From Actinomycetota bacterium (GTDB lineage Bacteria > Actinomycetota > UBA4738 > HRBIN12), in NCBI GenBank assembly GCA_038244455.1, contig JBBRTK010000001.1:1-51652 (forward strand): a stretch of 51,652 nt of DNA, written 5' to 3'. Shown here one piece after another: positions 40,049 to 42,459 of this stretch. Every line of letters begins with the position of its first letter. Within the stretch, counting starts at the first letter, position 1. The notes below the pieces were generated by a model, which was given only the letters and a program-made list of their open reading frames with translations, did not search any database and was not told the DNA's origin. Made by a program: the position numbers and the translations under genes.

Positions 40049-40759
40049 TCAGGAACGCCCCTGGTGTTCGCCTTCGGTCCGGTAGGAATCCACGACGGCC
40101 CGGACCGCAGCGGCGGGGTCATCGGTCACCGCGAAGAGGCTGATGTCGTCGGCACCGATCTGGCCCTCGGCCAGGAGTGTGTCGTGCACCCAGTCCACCA
40201 TGGGCTGCCAGTGGTCGACGCCGAACAACACAACGGGGAAGTGTTCGATCTTGTGGTTCTGGATCAGGGTGAGCGCCTCGAAGAGTTCGTCGTTCGTGCC
40301 GAACCCCCCGGGCATGGCCACGAACCCCTCTGACGCCTTCACGAAGCACACCTTCCGCGCGTAGAAGTGTTTGAAGGTGTAGGAGATGTCCAGATAGTCG
40401 TTCATCCCCTGCTCGTGGGGCAGGGAGATCCCGAACCCCACCGACAGGCCTCCCGCGCGCTTGGCCCCGCGATTGCCCGCCTCCATGATGCCGGGCCCGC
40501 CGCCTGTCACCACCGCGAATCCTTCCCGCGCGAATCCCTCCGCGACGTCCATCGCGGCCTGGTACCACTTCGAGGTCTCCTTGGTTCGTGCCGATCCGAA
40601 GATGCATACGCCGGGCCGGTCGATCTGGGACACCAGCTCGAACCCCTTGCGGAACTCGTCGCGGATGAACTCGATGTCGCGATCGATCTCGTCTGCCTCG
40701 CGGAACCACAGCCGTCGTTCTATCGGAAGGTCCTGGATCTGCTTCTTGCGTTCGCTCAT
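40049..40759 (-). CDS. LOG-family (TIGR00730) Rossmann-fold nucleotide N-glycosidase-like protein
   Basis: GGGPGIMEA and PGGFGTNDELFEALT LOG signatures. ATG 40759 overlaps the upstream ligase stop (ATGA at 40756-40759). Confidence 0.9.
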   Translation of the reverse strand: MSERKKQIQDLPIERRLWFREADEIDRDIEFIRDEFRKGFELVSQIDRPGVCIFGSARTKETSKWYQAAMDVAEGFAREGFAVVTGGGPGIMEAGNRGAKRAGGLSVGFGISLPHEQGMNDYLDISYTFKHFYARKVCFVKASEGFVAMPGGFGTNDELFEALTLIQNHKIEHFPVVLFGVDHWQPMVDWVHDTLLAEGQIGADDISLFAVTDDPAAAVRAVVDSYRTEGEHQGRS

Positions 40760-42459
40760 GTAGTGGTGTCCTCCTTCACTCGCCGCACCAGGCGGCGAAC
40801 GGTCGCGGGCGTCATCCTGGTGGCGCCCGCAGCCGCCAGCCACGCGAAGATCTCCGCGCGCTTGGCCAGGGCGGTGACGGCCACGACGTCGTGGGGGTGG
40901 GCCGAGGCGAGCATGGACCGGAGCGCTTCGAGTTCGTCGGGGTAGGCGGGAACCTCGGTGACGCCGGCTTGCGCCGCCCCCTCGCGGAGCCGGTCGATGA
41001 TGTCCTGTTCCGTGCGCCCGCGCAGGTAGCGGCGCAGTTCGGCGATCGCCAGATGGTCGCTGCCCAGAGCCGCCTGCAGGGAGAACGCGTGCAGGATGGC
41101 GTCGGTTCGATCACCGGCCGTGCCGATGGCAAGCCACACCTCGTGGCCTCGGCGGCACAGGCCGCGCATGAGCTCGGCCAGCGACAGCATCCCGGCGGTG
41201 TTGTGGGCGTAGTCGACGACGACCACGCGCCCATCAAGCCGGAACAGGTTCGCCCGCCCGGGATTGCGCTCGGGGTCCAGGATGAAGGTCTTGAGCCCCT
41301 TGACGACGGCGCGCGGCGGGATGCCGGCGCCAAGCGCGGCAGCGGCGGCCGCCATGGCGTTCGCGACGTTCACGCGCGAGAGACCGGCCAGCGTCATCGG
41401 GATGTCCTCCACCGCCACCAGCGGATGGAGTTGGTGACCGTCCAGCCAGGTGAGCACGCCGTCGACGACGGTGATCGCTCGCCCGCCCGACGGCAGCACC
41501 TCCCGGAACGCGGGATGGCCGGGATCGGCCGAGAACAGCCAGGGCCGGCCCGCGGCCAGGCGTCGCATCGCCAGGACCCTGGGGTCATCCGCGTTCAGGA
41601 CGTCCCATCCGCCGGGACGGGTGATCCGGGTCGGGATCGCCTTCACCTCGGCAAGCTGATCCAGGGTTTGCACGCCGTGCAGGCCCAGGTGGTCCTCGCT
41701 CACGTTCGTCACCACAGCGACGTCGTTGTGGAGCACACCGCTGCCGCGAAGCAGCAGGCCGCCGCGCGCCGTCTCCAGCACGGCGATGTCGGGCCCGTCG
41801 GCGAGCGCGAGCGCGGTCCCGCCGAACCCGCTGTAGTCGCCGGGCTGCATGAGTTCGCCGTCGCCCCGGTAAACGCCGTCCGTGCACGAGTAGGCGACCC
41901 GAAGCCCCGACGTACGAACCAGATGGGCCAGCAGCCGTACGGTGGTGGTCTTGCCGTTCGTGCCGGTGACCTGGATGACAGGGATGGTGGGGTCTGGGAC
42001 GGAGGGTTCGTCGCCGGGGTCGGCGGCCGCGACGCGAGCGGCCAGTTCGTCGACGAGCCGCGCGGGAGAGCGCTTGAGCGCGGACGCGAGCCCGTCGGCG
42101 ACCGCCCCCGCCAGCGCTTCCGCGGAACCCTTCCGCCGCCACGGGAACGCGATCACGATCTGGTCCGCCGAGCCGTCGAGCCGTCCCCTGACGGCGAGTC
42201 GCTCCGCGCCCGCCGCAAGGCCGATCCGCCGGGTGAACTGCTTGGCGATCCGGGCCGTGGTCCGCCGGCGCGCGTCCGTTCCGGCTTCTCCTGGAATGAT
42301 GCGGTCGAAGCCAAGGCCGACGGCCGTCCGCAGCACCGTTGCGTCGGCGGCGCGCATCCAGCCGGGCACGGCCAGGGTGAGCTTCATCGCAGGCCTGGGG
42401 AAGTACAGGTTGGGACCGTCGAGCACTCGAAGCTCCACGACGGTGACGGGCGGAGACAT
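40756..42459 (-). CDS. Cyanophycin-synthetase-like ligase lacking the ATP-grasp domain (CphA N-domain-like region + Mur-ligase M domain only)
   Basis: It shares these motifs with the cphA product in this window:
- N region: GPN and GLAAG..RLAVR.
- M domain: VTGTNGKTTT, ETARGG, NVSEDHLGL, LNADDP, NAMAAAAAA, DYAHN, GTAGDRTD.

The P-loop is at about residue 165 here and about residue 521 in CphA. Confidence 0.85.
   Translation of the reverse strand: MSPPVTVVELRVLDGPNLYFPRPAMKLTLAVPGWMRAADATVLRTAVGLGFDRIIPGEAGTDARRRTTARIAKQFTRRIGLAAGAERLAVRGRLDGSADQIVIAFPWRRKGSAEALAGAVADGLASALKRSPARLVDELAARVAAADPGDEPSVPDPTIPVIQVTGTNGKTTTVRLLAHLVRTSGLRVAYSCTDGVYRGDGELMQPGDYSGFGGTALALADGPDIAVLETARGGLLLRGSGVLHNDVAVVTNVSEDHLGLHGVQTLDQLAEVKAIPTRITRPGGWDVLNADDPRVLAMRRLAAGRPWLFSADPGHPAFREVLPSGGRAITVVDGVLTWLDGHQLHPLVAVEDIPMTLAGLSRVNVANAMAAAAAALGAGIPPRAVVKGLKTFILDPERNPGRANLFRLDGRVVVVDYAHNTAGMLSLAELMRGLCRRGHEVWLAIGTAGDRTDAILHAFSLQAALGSDHLAIAELRRYLRGRTEQDIIDRLREGAAQAGVTEVPAYPDELEALRSMLASAHPHDVVAVTALAKRAEIFAWLAAAGATRMTPATVRRLVRRVKEDTTT

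Follow-up and report, generated by a model that had tools for sequence, protein, structure and literature searches.

Cyanophycin metabolism is thought to require CphA1 (or CphA2), cyanophycinase and a dipeptidase. The full-length synthetase CphA1 (TIGR02068; PDB 7LG5, 7LGJ and 7WAC) comprises an N domain, an ATP-grasp (G) domain and a Mur-ligase (M) domain with its core and lid. CphA2 (PDB 7TA5 and 8FXH), which has been described as cyanobacterial (PMC9262961), consists of the N domain, the G domain and a truncated, inactive M domain, G being the sole catalytic domain (PMC10273328). The DNA analysed here, a stretch of 51,652 nucleotides referred to as the window, belongs to an Actinomycetota bacterium (lineage UBA4738, HRBIN12; assembly GCA_038244455.1, contig JBBRTK010000001.1, positions 1 to 51,652) and contains, on the reverse strand at 40756..42459, an open reading frame (ORF) for a protein of 567 amino acids (aa), named here the N-M ligase. 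An earlier note, made from the sequence alone, had described its product as a relative of cyanophycin synthetase with only the N and Mur-ligase domains, and the analysis confirmed this architecture: a CphA-type N domain is followed by an M domain that is complete, with its catalytic residues intact, and a G domain is missing.

This protein is neither CphA1, nor CphA2, nor a classical Mur, FolC or MurT ligase. With CphA1 it shares a predicted N fold with the GPN docking loop, a complete M core and lid with the same catalytic residues, and a predicted N/M arrangement that superposes on SuCphA1, and its gene adjoins cphA1. It differs from CphA1 in lacking the G domain, and hence the capacity to polymerise the backbone, in an N domain that has no Cx19HxxEH site and is unseen by PF18921, and in an M domain that is about 37% identical, forms a separate clade, carries 13 class-specific substitutions and scores below the TIGR02068 cutoff. 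Like CphA2, it is a reduced CphA architecture found alongside CphA1, whose N domain matches in predicted fold and lacks the hydrolytic motif, but the reduction is the opposite one, since G is missing and the M domain is full and apparently active; the family is, moreover, actinobacterial. The earlier note had given CphA2 the opposite architecture, in agreement with its published description (PMC10273328). MurE and the other peptidoglycan Mur ligases have the central and C-terminal Mur-ligase fold and the acyl-phosphate chemistry in common with the N-M ligase and are its next-best structural matches (Foldseek E ~1e-19), but the latter has no UDP-binding N-terminal Mur domain, scores far below their cutoffs and is found in a cyanophycin context rather than in a dcw cluster.

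Domain architecture and active site of the N-M ligase

The gene and its domains, all on the reverse strand, are as follows.

40756..42459, reverse strand: N-M ligase gene, CphA-type N domain plus Mur-ligase M domain, no G domain (ORF, Pfam, BLASTP, AlphaFold2 (AF2), Foldseek)
42010..42459, reverse strand: N domain, aa 1-150, predicted CphA N-domain fold without Cx19HxxEH; GPNLYF loop at aa 15-20
41275..41997, reverse strand: M core, aa ~155-395, ATP and Mg site with the P-loop G166-T173 (41941..41964), T193, E229 and D256-H257 (41689..41694)
40759..41274, reverse strand: M lid (Mur_ligase_C), aa ~396-567, Pfam match at 401-529; GDR-T-D-x-I and AEL..YLRGR, the CphA1 counterparts being GDR-R-D-x-D and (R/K)ED..RGR

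The ORF has a coding signature typical for a genome of 68% G+C (G+C of 0.88 at third and 0.52 at second codon positions), and the gene is under purifying selection, with a ratio of nonsynonymous to synonymous substitution rates (dN/dS) of 0.14-0.26 against five orthologues. As the earlier note had expected from a domain search, Pfam detected only Mur_ligase_M (164-375) and Mur_ligase_C (401-529) in the product, with no ATP-grasp or RimK match at E<=0.01; the CphA1 encoded in the same window matched eight ATP-grasp families in the same scan. The stretch before the P-loop region is just 153 residues long and is predicted to fold as an N domain; neither Pfam nor the predicted fold shows an ATP-grasp domain in the first 160 residues, a finding that would have contradicted the earlier note. 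The P-loop GTNGKT occupies residues 166-171 and its counterpart GSNGKT residues 522-527 of the window CphA1, hence a block of the size of the G domain is absent from the ligase; these positions bear out the earlier estimate of an offset between about 165 and about 521 and of a missing module of about 355 aa. The full-length AF2 model has a predicted local distance difference test score (pLDDT) of 87.7. Its superposition on CphA1, a comparison suggested in the earlier note, gave a query TM-score (TMq) of 0.78 on SuCphA1 7LGJ and 7LG5 over 878-882 alignment columns with the G domain skipped, and N and M of the ligase are therefore predicted to be placed as in CphA1.

The M domain is much nearer in sequence to that of CphA1 than to MurE. 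BLASTP aligned residues 152-543 of the ligase with residues 509-920 of the window CphA1 (35088..37940) at 38% identity over 416 columns (E 1e-55), and the M-domain strings quoted in the earlier note for the two proteins were all found in place. The NCBIfam model TIGR02068 matched at profile positions 477-847 only and scored 329.5 bits (cutoff 850). The Mur-type models scored far lower and below their own cutoffs, at about 85 bits for MurE (cutoffs 257-476) and 22-51 bits for MurT, FolC and MurC/D/F (cutoffs 163-800), including MurT at 30 bits (cutoff 800) and FolC at 46 bits (cutoff 163). No CapB model was among the 25 families listed for the ligase. When a profile of 42 family members was searched against PDB, CphA1 structures were found at E 1e-78 and MurE at 6e-20. 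Placement in a characterised Mur family, which would have contradicted the earlier note, was not found among these models, with MurE, MurT, FolC and MurC/D/F all below their cutoffs.

A comparison of 51 family members with 57 CphA1s gave 85 M-domain columns in which both groups have the same residue, conserved to 92% or more, among them K170, T193, E229, D256-H257, N289/D291/D292, R402, D416/H419, G449-D450-R451 and R480-G481-R482. Six residues, K170, T171, T193, E229, D256 and H257, do not vary within the family and are the same in CphA1. Their counterparts in TeCphA1 are the P-loop lysine K499 and the Mg ligands T500, T522 and E558, corresponding to K170, T171, T193 and E229 (PMC9427784), while D256-H257 correspond to D585-H586 of SuCphA1, a double mutant of which has an inactive M domain (PMC9262961). 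Judging from these residues, the N-M enzyme is almost certainly active.

The first 150 residues were assigned from predicted structure. An AF2 model of this region alone has a pLDDT of 93.8, and in a Foldseek search against PDB its best 15 matches were all N domains of CphA1 or CphA2 (probability 0.98-1.0, TMq 0.48-0.67), subsequent matches having a probability below 0.2. Residues 1-150 thus have the CphA N-domain fold according to the model. Sequence profiles do not recognise this region: PF18921 found no match in 18 family N domains even at E<=10, a hidden Markov model of the N domain alone matched nothing in PDB, and hhalign aligned the family colinearly with 48 CphA1 N domains over 104 columns with a weak E of 0.006 and a probability of 6%. 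A profile of the N domain searched against 1.84 billion representatives recovered 322 clusters consisting of family members only, the full-length ones being 557-585 aa long and one 745 aa, and no CphA1 of about 900 aa was among the best 150 matches. The resemblance of the N terminus to CphA proposed in the earlier note therefore stood in the predicted structure, where 15 of the 15 best PDB matches agree, and was weak in the profile-profile alignment.

Of the two N-terminal string matches offered in that note, the pair LDGPNLYF and FRGPNYWS proved genuine, as GPN is present in all 143 family sequences and in all 48 CphA1s examined; this region is a hydrophobic loop (Y14 and I17 of SuCphA1) that docks the N domain on the M domain (PMC9262961). 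The other, GLAAGAERLAVR against GLAAGRLAVR (GLAAG..RLAVR), is a chance match, with a BLAST E of 2.0. It is shifted by about 35 residues relative to the alignments from structure and from hhalign, in which the counterpart of CphA1 residues 150-161 is the ligase helix 110-126 and not residues 79-91.

The motif Cx19HxxEH occurs in 83% of CphA1s. It is present in the window CphA1 (from aa 89) and in 55 other neighbouring CphA1s, that is, in 56 of 56, and none of 141 family members contains HxxEH in its first 170 residues. In the CphA1 N domain this motif forms the zinc endo-cyanophycinase (metallopeptidase) site (PMC9262961). Binding of polyanions by a basic N domain was considered as a family trait and rejected: the domain is very basic in the window clade (net charge +7 to +16, pI ~11.5), and divergent members range from -14 to +8.

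Homologues of the N-M ligase number thousands of proteins of 560-590 aa from uncultured Actinomycetota; those of the family studied here, from metagenome-assembled genomes (MAGs) of Actinomycetota, are 557-585 aa long, and a pattern scan in which each species was represented by a single genome detected relatives in 546 of them. They are named 'cyanophycin synthetase' by JGI and 'Mur ligase family protein' by NCBI. MAGs bearing the labels Microlunatus and Antricoccus are the source of the divergent members (41-59% identity). In one family member (P0136, L085:6727-8964, 745 aa) the N-M core is extended at its C terminus by a TPR_5 region, and its gene is convergent with cphA1-cphB. The family M domain is 36.9% identical to actinobacterial CphA1 and 36.9% to cyanobacterial SuCphA1, these two groups being 48.7% identical to each other, and on a neighbour-joining M-domain tree the N-M family is monophyletic and lies outside the clade of actinobacterial and cyanobacterial CphA1. 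The equal distances and the tree position indicate an old separate lineage, and a recent deletion of G from the adjacent cphA1 is ruled out by the same data. The statement in the earlier note that the protein 'has lost' its G domain holds as far as the absence of G is concerned; being an old lineage outside the CphA1 clade, the family may have lost G or may never have had it. A search of the openly accessible literature for truncated, CphA3, CphA-like and G-less synthetases found no description of the N-M architecture, and in that literature no published characterisation of exactly this architecture contradicts the note.

Linkage to cphA1 and gene neighbourhood

Neighbouring genes were counted in the 80 closest related loci, and the divergent lineages (L081-L090 and L092, 41-59% identity) were examined separately. 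Of the 55 close loci with a full downstream flank, about 41-44 have cphA1 at a distance of no more than 8 kb and invariably in convergent orientation. Every divergent lineage with enough contig has a full-length cphA1 at no more than about 3 kb; the arrangements at the individual loci are as follows.

L081-L083: cphA1 abuts the ligase gene, convergent, 0 bp
L084: cphB, an additional ORF, cphA1 and the ligase gene on one strand, 26-bp gap
L085: cphA1 convergent, within a range of ~50 to 760 bp (with L087 and L090)
L087: cphA1 convergent, 85 bp
L090: cphA1 convergent, 758 bp
L088: cphA1 at 1.8 kb
L086: cphA1 at 2.9 kb
L092: cphA1-like 3' end (end of a Mur_ligase_C gene) 14 bp upstream, same strand
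L089: truncated gene with Mur M and C domains at 2 kb

As all other neighbours differ between these lineages, cphA1 is the only one kept across them. The L084 locus is the only one in which cphB, cphA1 and the ligase gene are all on one strand; its additional ORF between cphB and cphA1 (L084:6215-7057, 280 aa) is unannotated, and its sole match, to an SCO4651-lipoprotein model, is weak and below cutoff.

The other partners were counted in the close loci. An MFS gene lies upstream of the ligase gene in 76 of the 80, gabT is present in 68, a dksA-like gene directly downstream of cphA1 in 53, a PucR/PmfR-type regulator gene in 31 and a LOG gene in only three (L001, L002 and L056); none of the divergent loci contains MFS, gabT or LOG. 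LOG, limited as it is to the three closest relatives, was recently inserted into the ligase operon. The co-occurrence proposed in the earlier note accordingly divides: cphA1 adjoins the N-M gene across lineages, and the LOG and MFS neighbours do not accompany it in the divergent ones.

In four of the divergent lineages an orthologous M20 peptidase gene of the CPG2-like type is located beside the ligase gene (L084:13098-14264, L086:2188-3381, L087:3205-4404 and L092:2266-3237). Identities among the four copies are 44-50%, and of the NCBIfam models they come nearest to 'glutamate carboxypeptidase' (270-292 bits, cutoff 349). In L092 there is a 4-bp overlap between this gene and the ligase stop. 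Neither the window nor any of the 80 close loci contains the M20 gene. The peptidase may equally well be a beta-Asp-Arg dipeptidase or an enzyme that removes side chains, forming an editing pair of ligase and hydrolase.

Within the window, pucR on the forward strand is followed in layout by the gabT-MFS-ligase-LOG genes on the reverse strand, which are convergent with cphB-cphA1-dksA-like-gnd-pgl on the forward strand. The neighbouring features are the following.

34201..35091, forward strand: cphB, cyanophycinase (TIGR02069, 247.5 bits, cutoff 126.6), stop overlapping the cphA1 start by 4 bp
35088..37940, forward strand: cphA1, full-length N-G-M (TIGR02068, 1164 bits, cutoff 850), with PF18921, ATP-grasp and Mur domains and Cx19HxxEH from aa 89
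37950..38300, forward strand: DksA/TraR-type zinc-finger gene, 116 aa (partial matches to NCBIfam DksA and yteA), 9 nt 3' of cphA1
40049..40759, reverse strand: LOG-family gene (TIGR00730, 137 bits, cutoff 96), coupled in translation to the ligase gene (ATGA, in which its ATG and the ligase stop overlap; GGAGG 11 nt 5' of it)
42470..43783, reverse strand: MFS_3 (EntS-like) transporter gene (Pfam, NCBIfam), stop 10 nt 5' of the ligase ATG, a clade-specific operon partner
43858..45303, reverse strand: gabT, 4-aminobutyrate--2-oxoglutarate transaminase (TIGR00700, 543 bits, cutoff 507), start probably near 45204
45306..46940, forward strand: PucR/PmfR-family regulator gene (partial NCBIfam matches), divergent from gabT

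The M domain of the window CphA1 is itself conserved, and the ligase is therefore no substitute for a dead domain of its neighbour. If GTG at 35088 is the start of cphA1, giving the 4-bp overlap with the cphB stop, CphA1 would have an N-terminal extension of about 33 aa (35088..35190), rich in Arg and Lys, ahead of its TIGR02068 match. The annotated ORF starts of gabT (45303) and the PucR gene (45306) are probably about 30 codons too early. At 40046..40051 the convergent gene strings meet without a spacer, with the end of the pgl ORF at 40048 and that of the LOG ORF at 40049, and there is no room for terminators between them. In the window clade, gabT and the divergent PucR/PmfR-type regulator gene form a conserved block upstream of MFS and the ligase gene, and the ligase unit there looks regulated by nitrogen or gamma-aminobutyrate (GABA) catabolism; the dksA-like gene behind cphA1 hints at a regulatory link of cyanophycin to an RNA-polymerase-binding factor. 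Elsewhere in the window, two ORFs of 366 aa each (10595..11695 and 15320..16420) were compared as possible repeats and are not repeats.

Proposed function and alternative explanations

Taken together, homology to the CphA1 M domain and linkage to cphA1 make it somewhat probable that the N-M protein is a free-standing ATP-dependent isopeptide ligase that adds an amino acid to the side chains of cyanophycin or poly-aspartate. ATP and Mg2+ would be bound at the P-loop, as in the M domain of CphA1. The cyanophycin or poly-aspartate chain would lie in the cleft that the N domain forms with the M core, an Asp in it would be phosphorylated on its free beta-carboxyl, and the amino acid would then be joined to that carboxyl by an isopeptide bond. 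In CphA1 the M-site substrate sits between the N domain and the M core (PMC9427784), and therefore the N-M protein would constitute a complete side-chain-adding module. Unable to extend a backbone, it would act in trans on chains from the neighbouring, fully functional CphA1, in order to fill, complete or re-load side chains. The added amino acid could be Arg or another one, since residues around the lid and pocket are replaced in a class-specific way. The earlier note had likewise preferred a ligase for the side chains of cyanophycin or poly-aspartate, and the linkage to cphA1, in the divergent lineages and in roughly three quarters of the close relatives with a full flank, lends this strong genomic support.

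Several points weigh against this proposal. CphA1 already decorates each Asp that it adds, and the need for a ligase acting in trans is not obvious. About a quarter of the close relatives have no cphA1 within 8 kb; the genomes, all of them MAGs, belong to a single phylum, and the synteny is therefore in part a matter of common descent; and in the window clade the ligase gene is on the strand opposite cphA1, within a gabT-MFS-ligase(-LOG) operon, and the two may not be co-regulated. In the M domain, 13 columns are fixed differently in the family and in CphA1, including Y209 (A/N in CphA1), R238 (E/A), R294 (L) and D395 (S), and the CphA1-invariant GDR-R-D-x-D and (R/K)-E-D are GDR-T-D-x-I and A-E-L in the ligase family. 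On account of these fixed substitutions the substrates are possibly unlike those of the CphA1 M domain, and the acceptor, the donor or both may differ. To our knowledge no structure shows the Arg-binding position of CphA1, and donor specificity is thus unreadable from sequence. Architecture, intact catalytic residues, purifying selection and cphA1 linkage are observed, while the acceptor, the action in trans and the donor are inferred.

The nearest competitor keeps the same chemistry and acceptor and assumes a donor other than Arg, which would yield a mixed or modified cyanophycin, with the M20 hydrolase perhaps removing the side chain in some lineages. It is a realistic, though clearly less probable, reading, suggested by the replacement of R and D of GDRRDxD with T and I, the loss of D from (R/K)ED and the Tyr at 478, which is invariant in the N-M family only, as well as by the M20 gene, nearest to glutamate carboxypeptidase, that adjoins the ligase gene in four divergent lineages; CphA1 itself takes other amino acids at a low rate (PMC8050183). 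However, R480-G481-R482 and G449-D450-R451 are common to CphA1, no known Arg-bound M-domain structure anchors the reading of the substituted residues, and the M20 peptidase, absent from the window and the 80 close loci, could be a plain beta-Asp-Arg dipeptidase. A primer synthase, ligating Arg to free Asp or short Asp peptides and so providing CphA1 with (beta-Asp-Arg)-Asp-type primers de novo, appears improbable. (beta-Asp-Arg)-Asp is the minimal CphA1 primer (PMC9262961), an M module that stands alone and whose N domain is not hydrolytic could take short acceptors, and the gene is linked to cphA1, but a separate source of primers is not needed where all 56 neighbouring CphA1s have Cx19HxxEH, which makes CphA1 primer-independent (PMC9262961), and the retained polymer-holding N fold points to a polymeric substrate.

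The earlier note had also considered a ligase for an unrelated product made with its operon partners. The close spacing in the window, where 10 nt separate the MFS stop from the ligase ATG and the LOG ATG overlaps the ligase stop, would suit a small molecule made and exported with gabT, MFS and LOG, as would the presence of MFS in 76 and gabT in 68 of the 80 close loci. Such a product is nevertheless disfavoured and has little likelihood, since LOG is limited to three of these loci, all three genes are missing from every divergent lineage, where cphA1 is the sole common neighbour, the M domain resembles that of CphA1 far more than it does any of the small-molecule families (Mur, FolC, CapB), and the N domain has, by prediction, a cyanophycin-binding fold. 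CphA2 demonstrates that M domains can turn into inactive scaffolds (PMC10273328), which would allow a non-catalytic partner, a regulator or a decaying duplicate of CphA1. This is very improbable for a protein whose ATP-binding, Mg-binding and catalytic residues are all invariant in 51 sequences down to 41% identity, whose dN/dS is that of a constrained gene (0.14-0.26) and whose M domain is of full length, including the lid. The generic Mur_ligase_M and Mur_ligase_C matches and weak MurE-model matches are all that would speak for a paralogue of a peptidoglycan or other classical Mur ligase (MurE, MurF, MurT, FolC or CapB), which is the least credible explanation, given the scores of MurE (about 85 bits against 257-476) and of MurT, FolC and MurC/D/F (22-51 against 163-800), a predicted CphA N fold in place of the UDP-binding N-terminal Mur domain, and PDB profile E-values of 1e-78 for CphA1 and 6e-20 for MurE.

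Implications for cyanophycin metabolism

The JGI name 'cyanophycin synthetase' implies that metagenomic counts of cyanophycin producers may include a protein unable to polymerise. The N-M protein would isolate the half-reaction of the N and M domains for mechanistic study, and, if it is indeed a side-chain ligase, it would be a natural tool for decorating poly-aspartate or tailoring the composition of cyanophycin, which is of biotechnological interest. A more far-reaching and still rather doubtful idea is that the N-M ligase is a dedicated cyanophycin side-chain editor that loads an amino acid, possibly not Arg, on free Asp beta-carboxyls of chains already made, while in some lineages the CPG2-like M20 hydrolase strips side chains off; nitrogen would then be charged and discharged on a persistent poly-aspartate backbone, or a distinct cyanophycin would be made, without making or breaking the backbone. 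For the family as a whole, a side-chain ligase would represent a new enzymatic step, in which side-chain addition is uncoupled from backbone growth and performed by a widespread, apparently catalytically intact 'M-only' relative of the synthetase.

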